Source: a virus
Taxonomy: Duplodnaviria > Caudoviricetes
IMG/VR virus record: IMGVR_UViG_3300030519_000020
Location: 1 to 57,262 of that record
Length of the DNA stretch: 57,262 bases
Strand: one strand, 5' to 3'
Shown: positions 318-42,700 of the stretch, piece by piece
Position numbering within the stretch: the first letter of the stretch is position 1
Layout: each line of letters opens with the position of its first letter
The notes under the pieces: model-generated
The model's database searches: none
What the model was told of the DNA's origin: nothing
Seen by the model: the letters and a program-made list of their open reading frames with translations, nothing else
Translations under genes and position numbers: made by a program

Positions 318-560
318 TCAACTCGCGGCATGGGTCAGCATCAAAGCCGCCCGTAGCTGCCAGCCGATAAATTGGGTGTAGGCCGGCGGGATCGCCTGGG
401 CCATTTCGTCACGGTTCATCCAGTCGATATCCATGGCCCTCCTGGCGTAGGCCACCCCGGAGAAGTTCCCTATCACATGGATGAATTCGCCGTCCTTGGG
501 CTTGCGGCCCATCTTGGTCTGACGGGCGGCATGTTCCGGGTGCGCCGGCCCGGTAAATCG
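318..560 (-). pseudogene. C-terminal remnant of a phage DNA (cytosine) methyltransferase-like gene
   Basis: Frame reads PAHPEHAARQTKMGRKPKDGEFIHVIGNFSGVAYARRAMDIDWMNRDEMAQAIPPAYTQFIG, resembling the C-terminus of phage SAM-dependent DNA methylases. An in-frame TGA lies just upstream and no catalytic N-terminal part is present. Confidence 0.6.
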
Positions 561-4551: not shown

Positions 4552-4924
4552 TGGCTAGTATAAGCTCATCCAAACTCCCAAACCATTCAGAATTTATTTT
4601 ATATCCGTGGCCAAGAGTCCATACCTTCCACCCTTGGGCTGTCGAGGCAATGAACACTCCTTTGTGGTCTCGCCATTTGTTCCGATACAGGACATACGGG
4701 ATACCGTGCAATCGGCATAAGTGAGACAAAGTGAAGGCTTCCTCTTGGGTTATCGTCCTGCTCCCGGGATGGGTTGCCATAGCCTGCACCTGGTCTGTGG
4801 TCGTTCCCAGAATCTGGGCTATCCCTACCAGCGTGAAACGGCGCTCCAGTGCCTCAAATATCCCTGGCAGATATTTAGGAGGTTTCACGATTGGCCAGCG
4901 CCATCTTGATCCTGTCTGCCTCAA
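4466..4924 (-). CDS. hypothetical protein with a possible HTH (start uncertain)
   Basis: FTLVGIAQILGTTTDQVQAM helix-turn-helix-like segment. Confidence 0.5.
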   Translation of the reverse strand: MRQTGSRWRWPIVKPPKYLPGIFEALERRFTLVGIAQILGTTTDQVQAMATHPGSRTITQEEAFTLSHLCRLHGIPYVLYRNKWRDHKGVFIASTAQGWKVWTLGHGYKINSEWFGSLDELILASAAEVEEAQAHGWPTGLEDPSEGRTDQS

Positions 4925-5136
4925 ACTGGGATTCTAGGTATTCGACCAAATTGAACGGTCCCGATGCTTGGATTTTGTCAATCTCGGCCAACCTGTTTCG
5001 AAGCAGTTCTGGTTTTACTCTGGCGTTGATATCCATGGGGTCCCTTCTGCGATGGTTAGAAGCCACAATGCAACGGCGCAGTCCATCGTGAGGATCAGGC
5101 ATGCGCCGGGAGATAAAAAATAGATGGGGAGCATGC

Positions 5137-5859
5137 CTATTGGCGCGGAGTAGAAATGCCAAACTCTCGAGCCACACGGAACATTGCTATGGCTGCGTTG
5201 TATTCGGCAAGAAAGCGGGGATTGTCTGCGTGTTCCTGACTGACCCTGGCCACAAAATCCTCCAGGGATCCACCCTGGTAATCGTTCCAGCAGCCGCACA
5301 CCACGCGATCCTCGTCGATCCAGTAGGTGGTGGTCGCGCGCCGGCTGCCGATGGGGCCAATCTGGAGGACATTGATTCCGTCGGCACCGCTCAGGTTGGC
5401 ACCGCTCAGGTTGGCACGGCTCAGGTCGGCACCGCACAGGTCGGCACGGATCAGGTCGGCACGGATCAGGTAGGCACCGTTCAGGTTGGCACCGCTCAGG
5501 TCAGCACCGCACAGGTCGGCGCCGCACAGGTCGGCACCGCTCAGGTTGGCACCGTTCAGGTAGGCACGGTTCAGGTAGGCACGGTTCAGGTTGGCACGGT
5601 TCAGGTCGGCACCGCTCAGGTCGGCACCGCGCAGGTCGGCACCGCTCAGGTTGGCACGGCTCAGGTCGGCGCCGCTCAGGTGGGCACCGTTCAGGTAGGC
5701 ACCGTTCAGGTAGGCACGGTTCAGGTTGGCACGGTTCAGGTAGGCACCGCTCAGGTCGGCACCGCTCAGGTTGGCACGGACGCCGCCATTGGCATCAGCC
5801 AGCCACAGGGCATGCAGGCGGATGACCTCTTTCAGTTCGTCGGGGCTGTAGGTCTTCAT
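5137..5859 (-). CDS. pentapeptide-repeat protein 1
   Basis: About 25 A(D/N/Y)Lxx repeats; C-terminal domain IGPIGSRRATTTY...CGCW; AGGAG RBS before ATG 5859. Confidence 0.9.
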   Translation of the reverse strand: MKTYSPDELKEVIRLHALWLADANGGVRANLSGADLSGAYLNRANLNRAYLNGAYLNGAHLSGADLSRANLSGADLRGADLSGADLNRANLNRAYLNRAYLNGANLSGADLCGADLCGADLSGANLNGAYLIRADLIRADLCGADLSRANLSGANLSGADGINVLQIGPIGSRRATTTYWIDEDRVVCGCWNDYQGGSLEDFVARVSQEHADNPRFLAEYNAAIAMFRVAREFGISTPRQ

Positions 5860-5970
5860 GGTGGATCTCCTGGGGTCAAAACCCCATGTAATTGGGGATG
5901 GGTGAATTAGCGATGATGCCCCATGCGATGGCGGCACCTACGATGATCAGGATGATTCGGTGCCGGTCCA

Positions 5971-6255
5971 TTAGAACGGCTCCGGAGTTTGGCCGAGGAA
6001 CCTGGCGTCTTCGGCGCAGTCCCCTGGGACTATCGGTTCTGGGTTGGCGTTGTCACGGTATACGTGGTAGGCCAGCAGTTCCCGGCACTTCTCCGCGCCG
6101 GCCAAGAGTTCCTGATACGTTGCCTCAAGTTCCTCTCTGTCAGTGGTCCACACTCGGCCAGAACATTGGCAATCAGGGGAGGACATATTAGCCGAAAAGA
6201 TCGGCGGTTCCCCGTCCCGCATCAAGACAGTGAAACTGATGATTGGGTGTTTCAT
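5971..6255 (-). CDS. hypothetical protein
   Basis: 94 aa, ATGA-coupled to the upstream gene. Confidence 0.6.
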   Translation of the reverse strand: MKHPIISFTVLMRDGEPPIFSANMSSPDCQCSGRVWTTDREELEATYQELLAGAEKCRELLAYHVYRDNANPEPIVPGDCAEDARFLGQTPEPF

Positions 6256-6446
6256 AGTTCCCTCAGCCTGGTAATCCCATTGTTCGGATCAATATATAGT
6301 TCCGGGATCACGTTTTCCGGAACCTCGATGTAGCCCTCTGGAGAACCAGTTTCGGACTCCCATACTTCGTCCTCACTGGCGTTCCGGATGTATTCGCCTA
6401 CCTCCGTCAAGAGGTGGCCGTGGTCTACATAGACGCGCATGGTCAC
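6252..6446 (-). CDS. hypothetical protein
   Basis: 64 aa, 4-bp overlaps on both sides. Confidence 0.6.
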   Translation of the reverse strand: MTMRVYVDHGHLLTEVGEYIRNASEDEVWESETGSPEGYIEVPENVIPELYIDPNNGITRLREL

Positions 6447-7252
6447 AAGTTGTATGCCTCAGCCTCTTCCTTAGTCAGGAAGAAATTGATGCCATGGGAA
6501 CATGTATCCCACCTGTTGTCGTCCCAGGAATCAGCCGTGACGCGCTGGCCAGCTCGATAAATGGTTCTTGGTGTGTGGTCCGAGTAGCATTCTTCGGCTC
6601 CGATCACCTCTAGCACATTCACAAACTCGGCCCGACATTTCCGCTCTGCGCCATGGGATCGCCGGGCATCTTCCGGGACCAACAGTTTAACGATGACATC
6701 ACCACTGACGGAGTGACACTTCTTCCAGGCCCAGAACGGCCCGGTTGGCGGGATGTGCATCCTTATTGCTAGCGCGAGTTCCGCTCCCTTGGCACCGTTC
6801 AGGTCGGCACGGTTCAGGTTGGCCCCGCTCAGGTTGGCACCGATCAGGTTGGCGTCGCGCAGGTTGGCACCGCTCAGGTAGGCACCGTTCAGGTCGGCAC
6901 GGCTCAGGTAGGCACCGTTCAGGTAGGCCCGGCTCAGGTCGGCACCGTTCAGGTAGGCGTCGCGCAGGTTGGCACCGCTCAGGTAGGCCCCGCTCAGGTC
7001 GGCCCAGCTCAGGTTGGCCCCGCTCAGGTTGGCCCCGATCAGGTAGGCGTCGCGCAGTTCGGCCCGGCTCAGGTCGGCCCCGCTCAGGTAGGCACCGCGC
7101 AGGTTGGCCCCGCTCAGGTCGGCCCGGCTCAGGTTGGCACCGCTCAGGTCGGCACCGCGCAGGTCGGCACGGACGCCGCCATCAGCATCGGCCAGCCACA
7201 GGGCATGCAGGCGGATAACCTCTTTCAGTTCGTCGGGGCTGTAGGTCTTCAT
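6443..7252 (-). CDS. pentapeptide-repeat protein 2 with DUF5758-like C-terminal domain
   Basis: Pentapeptide repeats followed by WKKC..IVKLLVPEDARRS..RKCRAE..CSHGINFFLTKEEA. Confidence 0.9.
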   Translation of the reverse strand: MKTYSPDELKEVIRLHALWLADADGGVRADLRGADLSGANLSRADLSGANLRGAYLSGADLSRAELRDAYLIGANLSGANLSWADLSGAYLSGANLRDAYLNGADLSRAYLNGAYLSRADLNGAYLSGANLRDANLIGANLSGANLNRADLNGAKGAELALAIRMHIPPTGPFWAWKKCHSVSGDVIVKLLVPEDARRSHGAERKCRAEFVNVLEVIGAEECYSDHTPRTIYRAGQRVTADSWDDNRWDTCSHGINFFLTKEEAEAYNL

Positions 7253-7422
7253 TTCAGTTCTCCGTTCCCTTGGGGCTCAGGGTGAGCAGAGTTTGGTTGG
7301 CCAGGGCGACAAACGCCCGGTGAATAGCGATGGTCCGAGCCATGGCGTATAGGTGGTCATCCATGGCTAGCTGGTAGCCGATCTGTTTAATTTCTCGGGT
7401 GGAGTCCTTTTTTGCCATTGGG

Positions 7423-7710
7423 TCACGCATGGTGGCTCCTGGAATAGATATCATCGATAATGTTGCCGCAGGCGATCCAGAACAGCCGCACCAAGTTCAT
7501 GGCGTCGTCGGCTAGTTCGGTCGCGTCCCACGCGCCGTATTCTCCCAGCTCGTCGCGCACTGCGTCAGGATCCAGTTTGGCCAGCTGGCGCCGGTAGCGG
7601 AACTCATCCATTGCGGCCCGCACGTCCGCGTCACAGTCGCCGGGATGGCTGCACTGTTCGGCCGTGGTCCTGGTGATGTTCAACTCAAAGCGATTGAATA
7701 ATGCCCACAT
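7423..7710 (-). CDS. conserved-type phage hypothetical protein
   Basis: CSHPGDCDADV..ELGEYGAWD..LFWIACG; GGAGG RBS. Confidence 0.7.
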   Translation of the reverse strand: MWALFNRFELNITRTTAEQCSHPGDCDADVRAAMDEFRYRRQLAKLDPDAVRDELGEYGAWDATELADDAMNLVRLFWIACGNIIDDIYSRSHHA

Positions 7711-7926
7711 GGTGACCTCCGGTTAGATGACGTGTCCGAGCATGGCGCGGTCAGAGAGGAAGGCAATGGATTGAGCCAGCCATGGCAGTTTGGGATCCTG
7801 CGCGGCCAGGGATGCCAGATAGCGCAAAAGATGGTTGTTTGTATAGGGGCCTTTGTCCATGGTGTTCCTCCGGTGTTAGGTGATGAGTGGAACGGCACGG
7901 ATGCCGCTCCCGTCATAACCTAGCGA

Positions 7927-8238
7927 TTACAGCCAGCGCTGATTGAGCGCATACCCCAATGCGGATGACAACGCGTAGACAATGGCAAATCCCATATCCA
8001 TGCCGCACCCGGTGATCCGAATCGCATCGGAATGGCCGTTGATGGCATATCCCAGGACCCGGGCCGCGTGATAGGACAAATAGCGCGGGCCATCGCCCTC
8101 CAGCGTCAAGAGACGGATGTGTCGGCACATCCCAGAGCGGGACACGCTGTCTAGGATGGTGTATACGGTCATCCCGGGGGTAAGCCATCCCAAGAGGGCG
8201 GCTCGTGATTCGGCAATTTCAACTTTGGTATATTTCAT
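7927..8238 (-). CDS. conserved-type phage hypothetical protein
   Basis: VSRSGMCRHI..GCGMDMGFAIVYALS motif. Confidence 0.75.
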   Translation of the reverse strand: MKYTKVEIAESRAALLGWLTPGMTVYTILDSVSRSGMCRHIRLLTLEGDGPRYLSYHAARVLGYAINGHSDAIRITGCGMDMGFAIVYALSSALGYALNQRWL

Positions 8239-8324
8239 GGTATCCCCTATCGGCAGAAATGGACGGTGATGGTTGCGATTACGACGAAGGCAAGGAGAAA
8301 GCGGCCGAAGTGGTTCATATTTAT

Positions 8325-8492
8325 CTACCCTTCGCGGACATAGCAGCGGTGCCCACCCACCCGAATGACACCCTCATAGCCGCAGTCACGGACGGTCTGG
8401 GACATCTCATCCATGGCCGCCTGGAGGGTCTCTTGGGTAAATTCTACGCCAGCTTCGCTGAGGTTGGCGTTGATGTTGCGGATGGTGATCAT
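8325..8492 (-). CDS. hypothetical protein, first gene of the early operon
   Basis: AGGAG RBS before ATG 8492. Confidence 0.55.
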   Translation of the reverse strand: MITIRNINANLSEAGVEFTQETLQAAMDEMSQTVRDCGYEGVIRVGGHRCYVREG

Positions 8493-8695
8493 TTCTTCTC
8501 CTATGATTGGGTGGTGGTTATGCAGCGGGTCATGAGAGGCCCGCCGTATCTCCATCATGCGTTCCCAGGTCTACCGACGATGCACCAGCTCCATCTGATC
8601 CGGGCCTGTCCCCGTCTCTCCGTTCGGTAGTCATGTGCCAGGCTGACCCAAAGAGTGCTGCTGGCTTGTCAATGATCCGTTTCTTTGATACCCAT

Positions 8696-8724
8696 AGTTT
8701 ACTGCGTAGTGCATGACTCGTCAA
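8696..8724 (-). promoter_or_regulatory. sigma70-type early promoter
   Basis: TTGACG-17 nt-TAAACT on the minus strand. Confidence 0.7.
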
Positions 8725-8737
8725 GAGGTAGGGCGAA

Positions 8738-8953
8738 TTATTTTTTAAATTCTTTCGGCATAGCCAGCCGGTGCAGTCGGCAGTACTGCTCCAAGAGCTG
8801 CATCACCGCCATCCCTGGTCTGGTCTGCCCATGGGCGATGCGCCACAAAGACGTAGTGGCTCGCAGCCCGATCTCTGATGCCAGCTCCCGCACCGATCCA
8901 GCTACGTTGATCAGCGGTATCCACTCTGCCGGGAACGTTGTAGGTCTGGACAT
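8738..8953 (-). CDS. Cro/XRE-like HTH regulator
   Basis: GSVRELASEIGLRATTSLWRIAHGQTRPG; GGAG RBS; lies at the divergent control region. Confidence 0.7.
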   Translation of the reverse strand: MSRPTTFPAEWIPLINVAGSVRELASEIGLRATTSLWRIAHGQTRPGMAVMQLLEQYCRLHRLAMPKEFKK

Positions 8954-9383
8954 ATTTACTCCCCACACAGTATCATGCATCACGCACCCACACACAAGGG
9001 GCCATTGCATACCTATTTCACTCCGGATCAATACCAAGTGGTAGTCGCATCGCCTCCGAAGCAGGCAGTCAAGCGAGTGGACCGCGCCAGCGGGTAACGA
9101 CCTTGACGGCCGGCAATGCCGCACACACTTGCGACCGCAAGGGAGACTCGCAGAGGATCCCTTGGACACCGGGACTCACTGATCACCCACTTACCACGTC
9201 CGACTCCGCCTGGGCCCTCCCACCCCCTAGCAATCGCCATCCATCCGCCACCCCCTCGACCCCGCTGTTACCATTTGGGGGTAAGGGGGCAGGTTCAGTG
9301 GTCATGAGTAGAAACTTTCAGTCTATGGTAAAAACTTTTCATACCATTAATACCGACTGATTGATTAATCGGAGTGGATAGCT

Positions 9384-9472
9384 GATTCACTGCTGGGAGT
9401 TCTGCTGCCGGCCAGGTCTATGGATTCACCGAGTTGAGATCGGATTCACCGGGATACAAGGTGGATTCACCG
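9384..9472. repeat. phased direct repeats GGATTCACCG x3 (plus one partial)
   Basis: Copies at 9422, 9442 and 9463 (20-21 bp spacing); GATTCAC at 9384. Confidence 0.85.
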
Positions 9473-10071
9473 GTCCACCCATAATCTTTCCCCACCACAG
9501 CATTCTCAAGCGGGAGCGGGGGGGGATGGTCGCGCGCGTGTGCGGGGTGGATGTCGGGCCATCCGGGTCGCGGCCCGCCTCGCTGCAGGTGTACGGATGC
9601 TGCATTGAGCACGTCATGAAGACTAGATAGTCCCTGGGGAGGGGGGTCATGGGGGAATGACGGTGGTTGAGACGGTGTGTAGAATAAAGGGTCCAAATTA
9701 CATTCGGCGGTATTTCGCCATGGGGATTATTTTTCTCGTGGAGAAATAATTAATTCCATTGGGAGGGCGTTCACTCGCTCACGCGGTTCACTTTATTTTT
9801 TCAAGGGAAACAGAATTTCATCCCAAGAGAAAATATATACACTGTCGTTCGGATAAGCGCTCATCAGTTCAGAGCGCGTTCCGATAAGACCGCCCTACCG
9901 GCGTGAGGTTGCGAGCCGAAGGCGAGATGCCCTGAAGAGATGAGAACCGGTACATGGGAGGGGTTCGGAGTAGTCGCCATAGTAACAAGAAGCAGAAATA
10001 GTACGTAACTTTTCTGAGTGTTCATGCGGTTCCCGGATTCCTGTAAGAAAGGTAAGAAAGTCGATCTGTAG

Positions 10072-10109
10072 ATTTCCACTGTTGACATTGGAAATTCTGT
10101 GAGTATACT
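10072..10109 (+). promoter_or_regulatory. rightward promoter with an operator-like palindrome over the -35
   Basis: TTGACA(10082)-16 nt-TATACT(10104); ATTTCCAcTGTtgACAtTGGAAAT inverted repeat. Confidence 0.65.
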
Positions 10110-10127
10110 TTGTTGTAGGAGGGCACC

Positions 10128-10505
10128 ATGGCGAGCGCCGTAAGTATGCAAAAGCAACCCTGGATCAGGGTGGTCGATTGGGACCGTGTGATGGGGATCA
10201 GGTTCAAGGTTTCAGCCGAGGTTTGGACTGTCTTGATGAAAAGGATGGACGACCGCCAGTGCTCCCTGGTGGGAGTGGCTGAGTTCATCAAGGCGGGCTA
10301 TGACAGGTCTGCTATCTGGAAGGCCCTGAAAGATCTGGAGGGTCAGGGACTCATCCGCAAGAGGGGGTTCCACTGGGATGAGGTTTGGATCAACCCGGAG
10401 GTGGTTCGGTGCTGCTGGCTAGATAAGGCTCCGGAGAAACTGGTGAATATGATCGCTGGATTCAAGCAGGAAGCGTCGGCGTTCTATACGGTCAAGGAAA
10501 AGTGA
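10128..10505 (+). CDS. winged-helix protein, RepL-like
   Basis: YDRSAIWKALKDLEGQGLIRK..VWINP; AGGAGG RBS. Confidence 0.6.
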   Translation: MASAVSMQKQPWIRVVDWDRVMGIRFKVSAEVWTVLMKRMDDRQCSLVGVAEFIKAGYDRSAIWKALKDLEGQGLIRKRGFHWDEVWINPEVVRCCWLDKAPEKLVNMIAGFKQEASAFYTVKEK

Positions 10506-19157: not shown

Positions 19158-19528
19158 GCAGCCAGCGCGATATTTTCGAGGCCAGGATCAAGTCGCTGAT
19201 GCCAGAGGTGGCTGAAGCGAATGAGCCAATGTCTGAGAAGTCCGATCTCTTGGCCAGAGACTTCCTGGATAAGTTCGGGATCACCCACGAGCAGGCATCG
19301 AGTCTGTTCCGGGACGGCAGCACCTTCCGGACGATGATCGAGCACATGTACCAGGACACGGTGGACCTCCTGCGGGACTGTGACATCACCACGGAAGGCC
19401 ATGCGATTCAGGCCCAGGCCCAATTGCTCAACCTATTCCTGTATATCCCAATCGAGATCGAAGAAATCAACGCTGCCCCAACACTGGGTCGTCAGCATTC
19501 CGCTGATCCCCAGGGGCCAGGAGCATGA
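19154..19528 (+). CDS. hypothetical head-module protein
   Basis: ATGA-coupled to portal. Confidence 0.7.
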   Translation: MSSQRDIFEARIKSLMPEVAEANEPMSEKSDLLARDFLDKFGITHEQASSLFRDGSTFRTMIEHMYQDTVDLLRDCDITTEGHAIQAQAQLLNLFLYIPIEIEEINAAPTLGRQHSADPQGPGA

Positions 19529-19529
19529 C

Positions 19530-20780
19530 ATGGCCGCACCGCAAGTGATCAACCCCCACAAGAAGGACTACAAAGCCCCCAAGCTTTCCCTGAATGACCA
19601 GGCAGCTCTGGACAAGCTCCATGAGACGCTGGGTATTCAGGTTGACCCGAATACCGGTGAACTGAGTTCCAGTTCCGGGTTCCAGGTCAGTGTGGACGCC
19701 GATGGCAAAGCCACGGTGTTCAAGGACGAAGCAGTTCAAGGAAGCAGTTTTGAAGGTGACACGGATCCCCTGGGCGGAGAAGAAACCGGCTTTGGCTCTA
19801 CTCTCCTTCAGACTGAGCATGAAGTGGTCGTCAACCCCTATGAGCGCGACAAGGTTGAGACTGGCGACGAGGCCCTTCCCCCGGAGGAATCCGAGGCAGA
19901 GCCCGAGCCGGAACCTGAACCCCAGCCCAAGCCCAAGGGACTCGACAAGCGGGAATCCGACGCCCGCAAAGCACAGTCGGAGATGATGAAGACGAAGACC
20001 AGCCTGGATAGGACTAAGCTGGAGGTGGAATCCAAGATCGCGGAGTTCCAGGATCTCATTCAGCAGGCAGAAGTGCTCAAGGCAACGGGGTCGGCTTTCG
20101 CCCCCCCGGACCTGAACCCTGCCGATGAAGCGACGATCCAAACTTACCGCGAGGACTTCCCCGAAGCCGTTTCCGTCATGGAAGCCCTGGTCGCCCCGGT
20201 TTACGCCGCGCTTGGCCAGATCAGGGAACAAACCAACGCAACCGCGCAGCGTGTGGGCGAGCATTTCGCCAAACAGCGTAGCGAAGCGGTGCAGGCCGAG
20301 ATTTACAAAGTGGTTCCGGCCGCCAAGCTTGAGCAGATCAAATCCAGCCCTGAGTTCCTGGACTGGATCACCGCTCTGCCCAAGAAGAAGCAGAACTACA
20401 TTTTCGCTGCCATGGACGGTCCTGCCAGCACTCTTGATCCGAACGATGTGATCGAAGTGCTGAACGATTTTTCCAGGGCCACCGGGACCAGCATCGGGCT
20501 CAACGCCCAGGCTGCGCCGGCCCCGAAGCGAGAACAGCGTCCTGCCATGGACACGGTGCCGAATCTGCGCACCGGTTCCGCTCTCCCGGATGTCCCTCGG
20601 GCACCCCGGAGCAACCAACCGACTCCGTTCACTCCGGAAGAAATGGCCCAGCCAGGGTTCCTCAAAGAGGGGCTTTCTGAAGGGTCGCTGGAGCAGCGGA
20701 ATCTCTTCCGCCAACGACTTGAACTGACCCAAAGTCTCAACTTCAACGGGCGCACCGCGTCCGCGTTGATGCGGGCCTAG
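19530..20780 (+). CDS. scaffolding protein
   Basis: Acidic, coiled-coil, SPEFLDWI motif; directly before the capsid gene. Confidence 0.7.
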   Translation: MAAPQVINPHKKDYKAPKLSLNDQAALDKLHETLGIQVDPNTGELSSSSGFQVSVDADGKATVFKDEAVQGSSFEGDTDPLGGEETGFGSTLLQTEHEVVVNPYERDKVETGDEALPPEESEAEPEPEPEPQPKPKGLDKRESDARKAQSEMMKTKTSLDRTKLEVESKIAEFQDLIQQAEVLKATGSAFAPPDLNPADEATIQTYREDFPEAVSVMEALVAPVYAALGQIREQTNATAQRVGEHFAKQRSEAVQAEIYKVVPAAKLEQIKSSPEFLDWITALPKKKQNYIFAAMDGPASTLDPNDVIEVLNDFSRATGTSIGLNAQAAPAPKREQRPAMDTVPNLRTGSALPDVPRAPRSNQPTPFTPEEMAQPGFLKEGLSEGSLEQRNLFRQRLELTQSLNFNGRTASALMRA

Positions 20781-20804
20781 TTCCTTTGAACAAAGGAATT
20801 CATC

Positions 20805-21770
20805 ATGGCTATTACCCGTGTTGTCCCTACCCAGAACACCGGCATTCCTGCCGCCTCCCAGGCGCTCCTCATTGAGGAGATCGTCGAAGGTCTGACCATG
20901 GACGTGATGCGCCGGGAATCGTATCTCGGCAAGATCGCCAACACTGAAGCTCTGAAGAAGCTCGAACAGTTCGGTGATCAGATCACCTTCCGCGTGCTGA
21001 ACCCTCCTCCGATCCAGCCGTACTACGCCAATATGGACCTGGTTCCGACCGTCACCACCGGGACCAACTTCACGGTCCAGGTCAACAACGCCTTCTACGC
21101 CTACCCCACCCTGGACATCGTGGACATCAAGGAAATCAACCTCCCGCTGATGTCCCAGATCGCCCGGATGATGGCCGACGCGATGGCCGAGAACGAATAC
21201 CTGGTGGTTGTGGCTGGCCTCATCACCACGGTCTACGGCGCCCCCACGATGGTCTATGAGGGCCAGGTCCCGGGCACCGTTGCCTACAACCCGGCTGTGC
21301 CGACCTACGTGTCCAGCACTGATCGGACCGACCCGGACTACATCATCAATCAGTTCCTCGCCGCCCGGAAGGCTTACAACCAGATGGGTATCCCCCGCAA
21401 GGGCCGGTATGCGATGGTCAACTCGGACGTGGAGCAGATCCTGCTCCAGAGCGACCAGTTCACCTACCAGATCAACGGCGAGCGCAACGCCAAGATGATC
21501 GAGGACGGCGACTTCTCCATGCGCGTGGCCGGGTTCGACATTATCGTCACCGATGCCATCCCCACCGCGACCTACGGTGGCGTCTCCAATATCTGCCAGG
21601 GCGTCCTTGGCCATGTGAATGGTCTCGGCTTCGTCCGCCAGATCATGGAAACGGACATCAACTTCAAGATGCAGACCAAGGCCGGGCGTGCTTGCCGGAC
21701 CTTCGATGTGTTCGGCTACGGGCTGTCCGATAGCCGTTACATGGGCGCCTTCCCCCTGAAGGTTGCCTAG
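20805..21770 (+). CDS. major capsid protein
   Basis: 321 aa; GDQITFR, MGIPRKGRYAMV, VAGFDIIVTDAIP, VFGYG; strong codon bias. Confidence 0.85.
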   Translation: MAITRVVPTQNTGIPAASQALLIEEIVEGLTMDVMRRESYLGKIANTEALKKLEQFGDQITFRVLNPPPIQPYYANMDLVPTVTTGTNFTVQVNNAFYAYPTLDIVDIKEINLPLMSQIARMMADAMAENEYLVVVAGLITTVYGAPTMVYEGQVPGTVAYNPAVPTYVSSTDRTDPDYIINQFLAARKAYNQMGIPRKGRYAMVNSDVEQILLQSDQFTYQINGERNAKMIEDGDFSMRVAGFDIIVTDAIPTATYGGVSNICQGVLGHVNGLGFVRQIMETDINFKMQTKAGRACRTFDVFGYGLSDSRYMGAFPLKVA

Positions 21771-21837
21771 CCTTTCCTGCGGTCGCCAGGGGGGGGGATA
21801 GCCTTCCCCCCGGTCCCGCCCTTTCAAGAGGTTTCAC

Positions 21838-34736: not shown

Positions 34737-35777
34737 ATGATCCTAGCCACGATTACCATGACTTCGAACCGCGAGAACATCATTGGTGATGCTCTGCGGA
34801 GCGTGGTGGGATTTGCTGACCTTTGTATTCTGGTTGACCTTGGGATTACCGACAACACCGTGCAGGTGGCACGGGAGATCGTTGGGGACAAACTCCGGGT
34901 CGTCAAATATCAGGAAGTTCCCAGTCCTCGCAATTTCGGGCTGGATGCGGCGGCTGAGATGGGCGCGGATTGGGCCTGCACCTTGGACACCGATGAGCGG
35001 ATGCACTTTGATGGCGTTGACATCAAAGATGCGCTAGAGAAGATCGGGGCCGGGACTGTCCTAGTCCCTCACGATTCTGGGTGCTACTGCAAGGAACGGT
35101 TCTTCAAACTCCCGGCGCTGGACAAGTTCATCGGCTACGTCCATGAATGCGTTCCCCCTGTCAATACTCCCCAGGTCTACATGAATGGGGTATGCTTTTC
35201 TGAACTGCCGAAGTCTGCGGAACTGGCTCATGAAAAGGCTGAGTCCATCGTGGATTCCCTCACAAAAAGCACAGAGGAAGATCCGGGTAACCCCAGGTGG
35301 TGGTATTACCTGGGCGACACCCTATCCACCCTGGGGCGACTCGATGAGGCGCTACACGCCTTCCAGGCATGCGCGGAGTTGAATGGTTGGGACGAGGAAT
35401 CGGCCTGGGCATGTTTCCGAGCGGCCACCATTCTAGCCGAGCAGCACCAGCCGTTCGAGGCTATCGAGACGTGCGCCAAGGGCCTTGCCAGATACCCTGC
35501 CATGGCAGAACTCGCTTGGCTGGCCGGGGAAATTGCTTTCGCTGGTGCGCAGTATGGTAAGGCTATCTACTGGGCCAGAATGGCTGTGGCAAACGGGATC
35601 AATGATGGCGAACATACGATCCGCCCTCGTATCGGGTACCGACATGTGTTCGGGCTTACGGCGGGTCCGTATTGCCTGATGGTCAAGGCATACAATGCCC
35701 TTGGCATGACCGCAGAAAAGGAAAGTTGTGAGAAGGTTCTCAACAGGTTGAATGCCAAGGAGGCTGATCATGCCTAA
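34737..35777 (+). CDS. GT2 glycosyltransferase with TPR repeats
   Basis: RNFGLD..WACTLDTDE (DXD), GYVHE, DPGNPRWWYYLGDT and further TPR helices. Confidence 0.85.
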   Translation: MILATITMTSNRENIIGDALRSVVGFADLCILVDLGITDNTVQVAREIVGDKLRVVKYQEVPSPRNFGLDAAAEMGADWACTLDTDERMHFDGVDIKDALEKIGAGTVLVPHDSGCYCKERFFKLPALDKFIGYVHECVPPVNTPQVYMNGVCFSELPKSAELAHEKAESIVDSLTKSTEEDPGNPRWWYYLGDTLSTLGRLDEALHAFQACAELNGWDEESAWACFRAATILAEQHQPFEAIETCAKGLARYPAMAELAWLAGEIAFAGAQYGKAIYWARMAVANGINDGEHTIRPRIGYRHVFGLTAGPYCLMVKAYNALGMTAEKESCEKVLNRLNAKEADHA

Positions 35778-38164: not shown

Positions 38165-39706
38165 ATGGCTGGACTGGGCGATATTACATCGGCACTGGGC
38201 GGGATCGGGGAGGCCATCAACGGGGGCGTCTCTGGATACATCGAGGCCAAGAAAGAGAAGCGGGTCACTGATCGCCAGGATCAACTGTGGAATGAGCAGC
38301 AGGACGAGAAGGCGGTCCAGGATGTAACGGATGCTGGGAACGTAGCCAATTTTAGGTCCAAGGACATCAACCCGATCTATCAGGTTGACCAGCATTGGGG
38401 AGGGCTAGAAAATCCTGCGCCGCAGGGTGCAGGGACCACGCAAACGGGATCCTCCCCACAGGTGCCCGCCCGGACGGTAAAGGCTGCTCCTGCGGCTCCC
38501 CAGGGCAGTTTGGCCCAGGCTGTGGCGCAGCGGCAGACGCAAACGGCAGGGGCACAACCCCAGGCAATGGCTACTGCCCAGCCTGTCGCCCAACCCCAGC
38601 AGGAAGCTCCGGCCGTGCCTCCCCCGGGGTGGGAACCTTCCGACCCGGCCCTGAAGGGTCTGAATACCAAATACGAGAAGGCGCGGCAGCAGGCGGATGA
38701 AGACTTGGCTAAGATCGATGCCATGGCCGGGAACGATCCTGCACGGAAGCAGCGGTTGTATGCAGCCTATTACCGGTTGAACAAGCCGAAGTTTGATGAC
38801 CTTCAACAGGAATTGATCGACTACAACAAAACAAGGGCCCAGGCTTATCAGAAGAAACGGGCCATCGACGGGATGGAGAAATGGTTCTCTGATGAGGGGT
38901 TGGGTAATACCTTCGGGCAGGGAGCCAGAAAAGAGGGGAATACACTAGTCCTACCTGATGGCAAGACGGGGATGATCCTCCAAACTCCACTTATCTGGGC
39001 TGCCTACAAGCAGGGGATTGCCACAGAGAAAGAAGTTATGGATGCATGGGGGAAGGACACCAAGAATGCCGAAGACCTGATGTCCAAGAGCAAGGAAACG
39101 GCTGTTGAAATTGAGAAGATGAGAGAGCAGAACAGACTTCAACTTGCCCAGTTGCGGGCACAGCGAGATCCCAAGGCAGACATGGCCCAGAGGGTGTATG
39201 CGCTACATCGGCACATGGGCGAAGACGACGCTACCGCAACCAGGGCTGAGGCAAGTTTCATCGAACATGGAGATAAGACCGACCTGGACAAGCTCAAGGA
39301 AGATGATATGGAACAGACTCGGGCTGGAAAACGGGTTGACAGTGTTATGAAACAGTTCGCAGACATCGATGGTGGCTATGACGAGAAGAAGATGACGCCT
39401 TCAAGGACATTAGCCATTTACAATTCGATGATCAAGACGGACAAACCTGGAGCGGCGGCCTTGTACCTTAGGCTTCCGGACCCCAATCGTGCCGCCATCG
39501 ACGCGCAGAACGCACAGGATGCCGGTGCCAACCGCCCTGGCTCCGGGCAGTCTCCGACTGCCAAGCCTAGTCAGGTCAAGAGCCCGTTCCAGAAGCCATC
39601 GACTGGGCCAACCGTAGGATCGTCTACGAAACTCAAGGACGGTGCATACACCGTCAACGGGAAAACGGTCACGGTGGCTGGTGGCAAAGTGGTTAAAATT
39701 AGCTAG
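38165..39706 (+). CDS. ejection (internal virion) protein 2
   Basis: Gly-rich N-terminus, helical, Q/A/P linkers; position. Confidence 0.7.
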   Translation: MAGLGDITSALGGIGEAINGGVSGYIEAKKEKRVTDRQDQLWNEQQDEKAVQDVTDAGNVANFRSKDINPIYQVDQHWGGLENPAPQGAGTTQTGSSPQVPARTVKAAPAAPQGSLAQAVAQRQTQTAGAQPQAMATAQPVAQPQQEAPAVPPPGWEPSDPALKGLNTKYEKARQQADEDLAKIDAMAGNDPARKQRLYAAYYRLNKPKFDDLQQELIDYNKTRAQAYQKKRAIDGMEKWFSDEGLGNTFGQGARKEGNTLVLPDGKTGMILQTPLIWAAYKQGIATEKEVMDAWGKDTKNAEDLMSKSKETAVEIEKMREQNRLQLAQLRAQRDPKADMAQRVYALHRHMGEDDATATRAEASFIEHGDKTDLDKLKEDDMEQTRAGKRVDSVMKQFADIDGGYDEKKMTPSRTLAIYNSMIKTDKPGAAALYLRLPDPNRAAIDAQNAQDAGANRPGSGQSPTAKPSQVKSPFQKPSTGPTVGSSTKLKDGAYTVNGKTVTVAGGKVVKIS

Positions 39707-39718
39707 ACCGGAGGAATC

Positions 39719-42700
39719 ATGGCCGATAATTGGGAAGATCAGGCCGTGCCGATTCAGCCGGACGCAGGTTGGGAGTCTCAGGCGGTCCCAGTCAAAGCCC
39801 CCACCACACAGCCGGTCACTCCTCGCCCACCCGCTCCGCAAGGGACGGGTACCGTTTCTGCCCTATCTCCAGAGGAATACCAGAAGGTGGAGTCCCAGGC
39901 GGAACGTGCTGGTACTCCCCTCGAACGGGCGCAGGGGCAGGGTGGGTCGATAAAGACGCTCCCGAGGCGGGCCCAGGAAGCAGCAGCCTATGGGGTTGGC
40001 GCATCACTAGCGGCGGCCGCTGGTCTACCGGCTGGGATTCTTCACTACTCGGCGTTGCCAGCCTATGCGCTTGGCCTAACCAAGACTGGTGATGCGATCA
40101 ACAAGGTAGCCGATGCCATCACTCCTAGCAGCGCCCAGACCGAACTAGCGAAACAGGCCCCGAAGACGCCAGAAGGAAAGGTCATTGCGGCTGGGACGAA
40201 GTTCGCTACGGATGTGATCACGCTGGGAGCAGGCGGCAAGGTGGTCGCCAATACCGGGAAGATCCCCAAGTGGGCCATCCCTTCGTATTTCGCTGTCCAG
40301 ACGGCCGGGAATTCGGCATCCATGGCCCATGCTAGCGGCAAGGATGCCAGCCAGCCGATCCGGACGACCGTAGGCGCCACCTCTGAGGCGGCACTAGCCT
40401 ACCTCGCGGGTATGACTATTGGGAGGACCGTACCGGGACCCGAGTTCTCCAACCCACTGGCCACGGCCGGCGCACAGGTTGCCGGTGCTGGCGGGGTTGG
40501 GGCTGCGCTCCAGACAGGACAGAACCTCGTGGCCAAGGGGACGTATGATCCGGATCGTCCGCTCATGGCCAATGTCTGGGAGTCAGCAGCCATGTTCGGG
40601 GCTGCGTCTCTGGCTAACACACTGTCCCAGACGAGCAACCAGCGGGCAACGATGTTGGAGCATCCCCAGGGTCCTGAAGCCTACATGAAGGACTTCAAGA
40701 CGGCCATGGACAGCGCCGATGCTGCTCACGAGGAAGGACATTTGAAGAACGCGCCCTATCAGGGGATGAAGCGAGCCTATTCCAGATCCCAGGCCGTGTA
40801 CAACCAGTTGATGAAGACTGCGGCCGGTAAGGAGGCCCAGGCCAAGGCGGCGGCAGCGGAGGAGTTCCCTACCGTCAAACAGTTATTCCCAGAAGGCAAG
40901 GGCCCCACACCCGAGCAGGAGGTACAAGATGCCCTACAAGAGCAAGGCCCAGCAGAGACTGTTCCACGCGAAGGAAGCGAGGGGGGGAATATCCCCAAAG
41001 GTCGTGAAGGAGTGGGACAAGGCCAGCAAGGGGAAGAAACTCCCAGAGAAAAAGAAGAAGCCCAAAAAGAGGTAGCTAAGCCTCCCGTCAAGATCGTTGA
41101 CCAGACTTCATACAAGGGGGTCCGCCAGGGCTCGCTCATGGGGCCGGATGATGAAATGATGGTGGCCAAGGACGCCAAGGGCAACGACATTGGCAAGCTC
41201 TGGGTCACGAAGAAACCGGATGGGTTCGAGGTTCGGAAGGTAGAAGTGGACCCGAAGAGCCGTCGCCAGGGCGTGGCTGAGCAGCTTTACGTGGAGGCAC
41301 ACAACCGGTATGGCGCCTACAAGGGCGCAACCGATCAGACCCCGGACGGGAAGGCGATGAACACCCGTTTGCGCGAGACGCATCCTGAGATTTTCGAGAC
41401 GACTCCAAAGGCATCGGAAGATACGATGGACATCAAGGCCGAGTTTGACAAGCCATTCCCGGACTTCGACAAGAAGGGAGATGACTACGGCTACCCGGAG
41501 AATCTAAAAGATGCTCACGATACTGCGCACCTAATGGCCCCGGAAGAATTAGACAAGTCCATCGAAGACCTAAAGGCATTTGAGGCGAATCAGGTAGATG
41601 CAACGGCTATCCCCGAAGCCACAAAGGGGAAGCTCAAAGAAGCCATCAACAAAGGGGATATGGCCCGGTATGACCGTATCCTGGAACATACCGACATGAG
41701 CACAGAAGACGATGCCCGCCTTGGGCTAGCCTATTTCCCCGGGAACCCTCTCACCCTCGAAGATGCAATCAAACTACGGAGGGAGATGGGGAACGATTAT
41801 GCTTCGGATGCTACCGATACAGAATTGAAGCGAAGTATTGGCGCTCATGTCTTTGCCCATGTCTCAGGTAGCGTTGGGTCTGATCCTGCCACCACGTATG
41901 CCATCGTCAACGATTTGAAGGAATACATAAAAAGGGGTGGTGATCTTAATTCTCTCAAGAGTGATCTGATCGCCCAAGCAAGGGGTAGGCATCTCGATCC
42001 CGAACAGGCTGAAGTCATGATCAATAAGTTCAGTGAGAATCTTGGGAAGGTTGGCATTTCGATAACCCCACAAGAGCGAGTGGACCTAGCGTCTCTAGAG
42101 AAGAAGGGCGATGCCTACATGGTTCCCCCTGACCAGATTGCCACCGATCCCGAACGTCTCCAGTTCCGCGACACGAAGGAGCCCGATCCTGGGCTAGTAA
42201 AGAAAGACGGGGATTATCTCGGCTGGGTGGATGAGTCTGGGAAACTGGTTGTCGTGGACGGGCACCACAGTCTCCCAGGCGCTATCGAGGATGGGAAGGA
42301 TATTCCCGTTAGGATGATCGAGGCGAAGGACTCCGAAACCGCTAGAGCCATCGGCGCTATGAAGAACATCGCGGAAGGAGATGCGAGCGGGCGGGATGCC
42401 CAGCGCTTGTTTGAAGAGACGGGGATCACTCCGGAAGAAGTGAAGGCGGCTGGGATCAAAGTGAAGACCCCTAAGATCGAAGCCAAGGATGAAGTCCCGC
42501 TCCCCAAGGAACCGCTCTACCGCCCTTTGGATGAAACCGAGCGTAAGGACGTGCTAGCTCAGGTGAAGGATGCTCTCCCGGAAGCGAAGCCGGCGAAGTA
42601 TGCTCCCAAAGTAAGCCAAGAGTCTACTGCCAAACGGAGAGAGATGGTCAAGGCCATCGAACCAGATCCGATGGTCCGGGCCAAAATGTATCGAATCAGT

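Follow-up and report, generated by a model that had tools for sequence, protein, structure and literature searches.

A conserved small-protein gene, probably genuine, nested out of frame within a giant virion-type gene of a Caudoviricetes virus

Genes that lie out of frame within longer genes are known in phages. In phage lambda, Rz1 lies in the +1 frame of Rz. The two are two-component spanin genes, with Rz1 embedded in Rz (PMC5295617, PMC6139136), and the ShiLan-domain insertion in a phage methylase hides an HNH endonuclease encoded in another frame while being read through in the host frame (PMC11855218). Here, we describe a nested gene in a 57,262-nucleotide (nt) stretch of DNA from a virus of the class Caudoviricetes (IMG/VR record IMGVR_UViG_3300030519_000020), which is referred to as a whole as the window. 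The element in question is a 48-codon open reading frame (ORF) for a small protein (P0001) of what we call the MPYKS family, located inside a giant gene (P0002). Like Rz1 in Rz, it is a complete small ORF with its own start and stop codons, out of frame in a larger phage gene on the same strand, with expression of both genes presumably intended. The likeness is architectural only: unlike Rz1, a lipoprotein that pairs with Rz, P0001 has neither a cysteine nor a hydrophobic signal. Also unlike the lambda case, the host is a giant virion-type gene whose overlapped part serves as a passive linker, and unrelated host genes carry the same cassette. As in the ShiLan case, the phage segment has no stop codon in the host frame and conceals a gene that is read in a different frame; however, the ShiLan gene encodes a homing endonuclease, whereas P0001 is a basic protein of 48 amino acids (aa) that is predicted to form two helices and lacks any nuclease motif, and empty sites were not encountered. 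What sets the present case apart is the protein family, which is neither a nuclease nor a lipoprotein, its recurrence in unrelated giant genes in one register, and the linker role at junctions. The nested gene, its start signal, and the host gene have the following window coordinates:

40929..41075, + strand: nested 48-codon gene (P0001) of the MPYKS small-protein family, identified from the ORF list, homology, and frame conservation
40917..40923, + strand: AGGAGGT, Shine-Dalgarno-like, 5 nt (acaag) ahead of the ATG at 40929; kept in locus L007
39719..45265, + strand: host gene P0002, a stop-free ORF of 1,848 codons that is giant, multidomain, and virion type (polyvalent-like), identified from the ORF list and domain matches
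40928..41077, + strand: shadow linker, i.e., host residues 404 to 453 (DALQEQ...KEVA), on the same bases as the small gene

We consider it highly probable that the 48-codon ORF is a genuine gene under purifying selection that occurs as a family cassette in the giant gene, such that the same bases are read twice. A preliminary description of this DNA had pointed to the succession AGGAGGT-acaag-ATG and a 48-codon +1 ORF inside the giant gene, and both the sequence and the ORF list confirm it. The translation of the small ORF is MPYKSKAQQRLFHAKEARGGISPKVVKEWDKASKGKKLPEKKKKPKKR, followed by a TAG stop at 41073 to 41075, and its register relative to the host ORF on the same strand is (40929 − 39719) mod 3 = 1 (i.e., frame +1). 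In the host frame, the bases of AGGAGGT encode part of EQEVQ. ORFs of this size are common in the window (59 of at least 40 aa within 7 kb; G+C content, 58%), and the case therefore rests on homology and frame-specific conservation. Of the 12 AGGAGG copies on the + strand of the window, 4, including that at 40917, are located 5 to 6 nt before the ATG of an ORF of at least 48 aa; the Shine-Dalgarno motif is thus supportive rather than decisive. A strong Shine-Dalgarno motif at good spacing is present in both the window and L007. P0001 is the sole family copy in the virus record, for which CheckV gives a completeness of 99%.

The preliminary description also likened the peptide to stand-alone small phage proteins beginning MP(F/Y)KSKAQ. 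This likeness proved to be real. A search with P0001 among proteins of 26 to 84 aa retained 278 of 293 candidates at an E-value of ≤0.01, the best at 65 to 89% identity (best nonself match: E-value, 9.5e-16; 89% identity). A HMMER scan of 1.84 billion cluster representatives yielded 551 at an E-value of ≤1e-3, each standing for a cluster at 50% identity, and at least 399 IMG/VR stretches encode a relative of P0001. The family consensus is MPYKSxAQRRxFHAxExRGEISPKVVKEFDKASKGKKLPEKVKKKK, with 10 invariant columns in a 40-sequence alignment, and members follow the pattern MPYKSxAQ..FH...G.IS...V.E.D.ASKGKKLP and then a Lys-rich tail. All of the invariant or nearly invariant residues (M1, P2, Y3, K4, S5, Q8, F12, H13, G19, I21, V26, E28, D30, A32, S33, K34, G35, K36, K37, L38, and P39) are present in the window copy. 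An AlphaFold2 model of P0001 based on the same size of alignment (40 sequences) has a mean predicted local distance difference test (pLDDT) score of 81.6, with predicted helices at residues 6 to 18 and 23 to 33 and a disordered Lys-rich tail.

Scans of P0001 and of family members against Pfam and NCBIfam yielded no significant match, and PHROGs gave P0001 only phrog_16759 and phrog_25121 at E-values of approximately 0.1. Neither a PDB sequence search nor Foldseek with the P0001 model matched anything; a two-helix hairpin is too small for a fold search. Searches of 50,697 deposited phage records by tblastn gave no match for P0001 or P0113, and the small protein of the nested locus L013 returned only noise (E-values of ≥4). 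By hhalign, the family profile aligned with gp383 of Pseudomonas phage 201phi2-1 (E-value, 1.3e-10) and with the N terminus of an Asteriusvirus "virion structural protein" (EcMJ_403; phrog_25121; E-value, 7e-8). The pattern MP.KS..Q.......GI......EF/W......KLP.. is common to these two proteins and the family; they are remote jumbo-phage relatives that show approximately 44 to 48% identity over the aligned columns, contain insertions, and, unlike P0001, are in-frame N-terminal or stand-alone rather than nested. The nearest named cluster in the ESM Atlas is a "putative DUF3008 domain-containing protein" (score, 0.89; 187 shared features), which we treat as a lead only. DUF3008 (PF11450) presumably has a similar MP.KS..Q start, and its model matched neither P0001 nor any of 110 proteins (0/40, 0/65, and 0/5) at E-values of up to 1 to 10. 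The Lsr2 DNA-binding domain (PF23359) was considered and rejected: it did not match P0001, and it matched 8 of 40 and 3 of 65 members weakly (best E-value, 0.017). In a few literature queries on overprinted genes, internal virion proteins, and DUF3008, with supplements outside their scope, no description of the MPYKS family was found.

The protein family is new and unnamed. Standard gene callers omit a gene nested in a longer gene on the same strand, so the family protein goes unreported in exactly the genomes that have a nested copy. A widely conserved family (at least 551 clusters) that has no Pfam or NCBIfam model is thereby missed by annotation where nested. In addition, the family is so far reachable only via metagenomes, no close copy being present in the 50,697 deposited phage records.

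A comparison of nested with stand-alone copies had been proposed as a check of the nested gene. We compiled 76 distinct loci from the best 80 of at least 399 and the best 80 of at least 359 IMG/VR relatives, together with L146 and the window; entries that shared the same 180-nt key were counted once. The second IMG/VR scan used an AT-rich nested-clade query and is therefore enriched for nested copies. The counts are as follows:

Stand-alone: 54 of 76 loci
Module at the N terminus of a longer in-frame protein: 7 of 76 loci
Nested inside a long ORF: 15 of 76 loci

The register of the host ORF relative to the small ORF is identical in all 15 nested loci, and every nested copy keeps the ATG and the N-terminal MPYKS and has its own stop codon. 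The arrangement thus recurs in one constant frame. Its position within the host protein varies:

Window: residue 404 of 1,848
L007: residue 422 of 1,859
AT-rich clade (L013, L028, L048, L091, L097 to L099, L138, and L146): approximately 42 to 55 residues from the start
Deep copies: L026, residue 818 of 1,173; L120, 550 of 1,207; L067, 1,319 of >3,357; L122, 521 of 2,137

L146 was found via its giant body alone (i.e., without a small-protein query) and is likewise nested. On a small-protein tree, which is poorly resolved with 46 columns, the nested state changes five times, and at least three of these changes are forced by well-supported branches. Conserved synteny around the stand-alone copies was considered and rejected on account of heterogeneous neighbors.

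The small frame dominates the substitution pattern. When six nested loci of the AT-rich clade were compared (15 pairs), the 105 nt preceding the small ORF's ATG contained 34, 155, and 85 differences at small-frame positions 1, 2, and 3, respectively, which is host-frame wobble; over the first 38 codons of the small ORF in the same loci, they number 45, 43, and 160, which is small-frame wobble. The wobble periodicity therefore passes from one frame to the other where the nested gene begins. Between the window and L007, the overlap contains 1, 2, and 5 differences at small-frame positions 1, 2, and 3, and the 360 nt after the small ORF contain 15, 11, and 43 at host-frame positions 1, 2, and 3. 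One double substitution in the overlap (CAG AGA to CAA CGA) keeps Gln-Arg in the small protein and changes a host Glu to Thr. Across 13 nested loci, mean identity is 0.75 in the small frame versus 0.44 in the host frame, with the small frame higher in 78 of 78 pairs. The frame-specific conservation that was proposed as a check is seen in the codon-position counts; relatives keep the ATG and the open +1 frame, and the nearest of them, L007, also keeps the ribosome-binding site. The observations named beforehand as refuting the nested gene (no homologous family, or a main frame conserved while the +1 signals are lost) were thus not made.

The host frame, for its part, is kept open by selection. 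When synonymous codons were resampled (20,000 replicates) with each small protein fixed and local codon usage applied, the host frame was stop free in a fraction of 0.0001 to 0.0008 for the AT-rich loci and 0.02 to 0.05 for the GC-rich window, L007, and L122. Such low chance openness (0.0001 to 0.05) indicates that both frames are kept open by selection. Among the 54 stand-alone copies, the host-type frame is open in 1 and the other frame in 15; all 15 nested copies use the frame that is more rarely open. Together with the resampling, these counts argue that the arrangement is not an accident of composition. Translation of the host frame across the overlap is indicated by the stop-free host ORFs and by the parts upstream of the cassette, which are conserved in the host frame. 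The choice of register likely reflects the fact that the Lys (AAR) and Glu (GAR) codons of the small gene are read in the host frame as E/Q/K and G/R, giving a soluble, flexible, and benign linker. Dual coding is thus upheld by selection, with the small frame being informative and the host frame needing only to stay open, and this holds even at a G+C content of 31 to 35%, where chance openness is <0.001.

The host residues under the overlap in the window (404 to 453) are DALQEQGPAETVPREGSEGGNIPKGREGVGQGQQGEETPREKEEAQKEVA, including the low-complexity stretch DALQEQGPAETVPREGSEGG.... BLASTP among 11 giant proteins of nested loci detected similarity between lineages only over the overlap and approximately 12 residues before it. 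A profile of the 15 shadows, applied to proteins of 106 to 2,000 aa, recovered 97 clusters at an E-value of ≤1e-3 among 7,999 scored candidates. Most of these clusters are 1,084 to 1,953 aa long; they fall into several length classes, and many contain tens of sequences. In the 20 shadow-bearing sequences that were inspected, the shadow lies near the N terminus or deep in the protein, in architectures that look unrelated. Judged from these comparisons, it is the small gene that casts the DA(I/L/V)Q.. linker as its shadow in the host frame, and the earlier suggestion that the A(I/L)QEQ linkers of other giant proteins are such shadows holds for both the BLASTP and the profile results. The shadow yields protein similarity between unrelated giants that could be mistaken for a shared domain. 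Several source names attached to shadow- or module-bearing proteins (P0393, P0417, P0426, and P0335), i.e., NapAB chaperone NapD, FliE, and RPC12/RpoP, look like errors of automated annotation.

The cassette sits at recombination (mosaic) junctions. In the window, the junction is located at its 5′ edge:

40900..40930, + strand: mosaic junction at the 5′ edge of the cassette, defined by the onset of DNA similarity to L007 and by the switch in P0421

DNA similarity between the window and L007 starts abruptly, approximately 20 nt before the nested ATG. P0421 (1,813 aa; seven member sequences) is a natural recombinant of the window-type giant protein whose N-terminal ~365 residues are L007-like. 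Before residue ~347, 30-column windows of P0421 are 57 to 100% identical to L007 (≥80% in most) and 14 to 33% identical to the window; from residue ~377, P0421 is 100% identical to the window, the shadow starting at residue 369. The N-terminal segments of the window protein and of its L007 counterpart (gene at 4737 to 10313), which are approximately 14 to 33% identical, look like two alleles. Among the AT-rich loci, at least three different bodies follow one and the same unit of a 41-residue host-frame head and the cassette, and the L146 body is 80% identical to that of L097, yet the two carry different small-protein subtypes. Because the cassette lies at mosaic junctions, it links gene overlap with the way in which injected phage proteins evolve as modules. 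The head itself (MA.NPCKY.IEIKPGEFKE.TE.ELKDYLL.QDLS.LK) is conserved in L013, L048, L091, and L097 to L099 at approximately 5877 to 5999 and has no family match; the same 41-residue N-terminal head is found in P0381, P0391 to P0393, P0396, P0403, and P0425.

The giant gene is located 3′ of an internal-virion-protein gene and tail-fiber genes. Two further stretches of it are of interest:

42119..42469, + strand: ParB-like stretch, P0002 residues 801 to 917 (phrog_21; E-value, 1.7e-8)
41081..41455, + strand: host-frame module following the cassette, conserved and weakly GNAT-like (PF13508; E-value, 0.0082, which falls short of the cutoff)

The weak GNAT match spans P0002 residues 477 to 531, and the downstream module as a whole shows 86% identity in L007. 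The L007 homolog, P0435, carries the source name "ParB-like chromosome segregation protein Spo0J." A search with the downstream module identified L007 as the sole relative of the window-type giant gene in IMG/VR; in metagenomes, it identified L083, a distant relative without the cassette that lies at a contig end and is not comparable. A PDB sequence search with P0002 and a megablast search of the giant gene against deposited phages each gave no match. Elsewhere among the cassette- and shadow-bearing proteins, the L122 host protein is DarB-like, and P0452 and P0459 have precomputed Pfam domains PF18760 and PF18762.

Polyvalent proteins are described as giant multidomain proteins of phages and conjugative elements whose genes lie with late or structural genes; packaging in the capsid is predicted for them, and their domains include DdrB-like ParB and GNAT (Iyer et al. 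2017, PMC5512222). P0002 may be of this kind, having a ParB-like stretch, a weak GNAT match, and internal-virion and tail-fiber neighbors, and the L122 host protein (DarB-like), P0452, and P0459 (PF18760 and PF18762) show comparable features. These features fit a likeness of the host genes to the putatively capsid-packaged proteins of that study, in the main text of which the terms "overlapping," "linker," and "low-complexity" occur 0 times each. The preliminary label of the host gene as an "ejection protein" is, on the ParB-like stretch, the weak GNAT match, and the polyvalent-protein-like relatives, plausible but indirect.

Hints about the function of the small protein come from its fusions. 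At least 259 longer proteins contain the module as an in-frame part, in most cases N-terminally. In P0189, it is joined to a T7-like scaffolding (capsid assembly) C terminus; in P0287 and P0310, it is combined with PF14550 and NUDIX; and other partners include DnaJ and SprT-like domains, along with many long Ala/Gly/Pro-rich proteins that have no family match. A separate group of proteins of 350 to 530 aa (P0293, P0296, P0302, P0317, and P0319) has an internal or C-terminal module (..KPY(A/V)S.AQR.KFHAME.RGEISH..) and a repeated "KPNLPKSE"; these proteins lie on contigs of up to 186 kb, possibly from jumbo phages.

On the reading that we prefer, the giant-gene frame would give a hydrophilic, poorly conserved linker whose main constraint is the avoidance of stop codons, and the +1 frame would give a small two-helix protein. 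The latter may arise when ribosomes initiate internally, at its own AGGAGGT/ATG, on the late giant-gene mRNA. It might act in head or virion biology, being packaged or associated with assembly and possibly binding nucleic acid; this role is proposed because scaffolding-like, prohead-protease-type, and virion structural proteins elsewhere include the module as an in-frame fusion. An association with the head or virion, possibly with nucleic acid binding via the Lys-rich tail, is a tentative suggestion that we hold with less than even confidence. As to origin, the giant ORF would have captured the gene, or recombination would have carried it from one giant ORF to another; it would not have been born de novo in the linker. 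The preliminary description had left the choice between an overprinted and a captured gene; capture is favored, and overprinting is not, because the small frame is ordered, better conserved, and mostly stand-alone elsewhere.

No sigma-70-like promoter was found within 39500 to 42000. Six RNA-labeled runs contain parts of the window, and the contigs of two were compared: they cover pieces of the giant gene, with DNA carryover being possible, and none spans 40929 to 41075. A 663-nt contig from one run (X14) matched only the core of the small ORF (40980 to 41046; 9 differences in 67 nt) and then continued into unlike sequence. It appears that a second phage with another family copy co-occurs in the same kind of sample.

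Several points weigh against a genuine nested gene with the properties proposed above. No Shine-Dalgarno motif was found in the AT-rich nested copies, and the window copy has G20 where the majority residue is E, although column 20 is not invariant. The window lineage has one DNA relative (L007), which differs from it at 8 sites across 39 codons. The small protein itself led to nearly all loci, so that giant relatives lacking the cassette would mostly have been missed, L146 being the sole exception; the 97 shadow clusters are known as protein records; and the neighbors of the stand-alone copies are a mixed set (terminase, DNA polymerase, tail fiber, and structural proteins), which speaks against one fixed role. 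The functional proposal draws on fusion partners and composition, with no Pfam, NCBIfam, or PDB match. Finally, translation of the small ORF is deduced from sequence, a circumstance that, like G20 and the abundance of ORFs of at least 40 aa in the GC-rich window, would also suit a chance open frame or a decaying, unexpressed relic of a captured gene, with only the giant protein mattering. We regard this last explanation as very improbable, given HMMER E-values to hundreds of homologs of down to 1e-15, substitutions that follow the small frame, a start, stop, and Shine-Dalgarno motif that are kept in L007, and the status of P0001 as the only family copy in a 99%-complete genome. A coupling of the small ORF to the giant ORF by programmed frameshifting, either −1 from small to host near the Lys-rich tail or +1 from host to small, is somewhat less improbable but still quite unlikely. 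The −1 version would give an MPYKS-headed form of the C-terminal 1,400 residues. It would account for the constant frame in 15 of 15 nested loci, since a −1 shift would lead from the small frame into the host frame; AAA_AAG-type stretches occur in the last 10 codons of 6 of the 15, including the window and L007, and elsewhere the module is often fused in frame to long proteins (at least 259 proteins). However, no slippery heptamer is conserved in position (the tail lacks one in 9 of the 15 nested loci, and L028, L098, and L026 are entirely without one), which makes such coupling unlikely. A Lys-rich tail gives A-runs through composition alone, the ATG and MPYKS are kept in 15 of 15 loci with each small ORF having its own stop, and the constant frame may be explained otherwise, by Lys/Glu codons being read as E/Q/K/G/R in a benign linker.

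Of the alternatives to a phage gene maintained for its own function, the one we take most seriously, while still judging it unlikely, is that the cassette is primarily a selfish or mobile insertion that persists since the giant genes stay unbroken, the small protein serving the element. Unrelated giant proteins share only the shadow and approximately 12 upstream residues, the cassette edges coincide with mosaic junctions, L146 combines another small-protein subtype with a body that matches that of L097 at 80% identity, and the stand-alone copies have heterogeneous neighbors, all of which such an element could produce; the out-of-frame HNH element of the ShiLan domain sets a precedent (PMC11855218). 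On the other hand, a 48-aa two-helix protein with no nuclease or recombinase signature is not what this explanation would lead one to expect, and no pair of filled and empty sites was found, searches with giant bodies having returned only cassette-bearing relatives (1, 3, and 3 loci). That the protein is very strongly conserved, and that head proteins frequently carry it as an in-frame fusion, points to a phage function instead. A broader proposal, which we consider possible if somewhat improbable, is that a module read in two frames, the MPYKS cassette, has been passed, always in one register, between giant virion (polyvalent-type) proteins that are otherwise unrelated, serving at once as a gene, a flexible linker, and a region of recombination homology. 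If this were true, a portable linker gene would drive the domain shuffling of injected proteins by swapping N- and C-terminal bodies, and a class of annotated low-complexity linkers in phage giant proteins would mark a hidden gene.

Two other ORFs of the window, away from the giant gene, were recorded:

19467..21827, − strand: 786-codon ORF, unusually long, antisense to the + strand ORFs at 19380 to 20780 and 20805 to 21770
34737..35777, + strand: 346-aa ORF matching a beta-1,4-glycosyltransferase PHROG (phrog_13126; E-value, 2.5e-18), in the late/structural region

The antisense ORF is probably a GC-rich shadow ORF. The glycosyltransferase-like ORF sits where a capsid-type gene might be expected.

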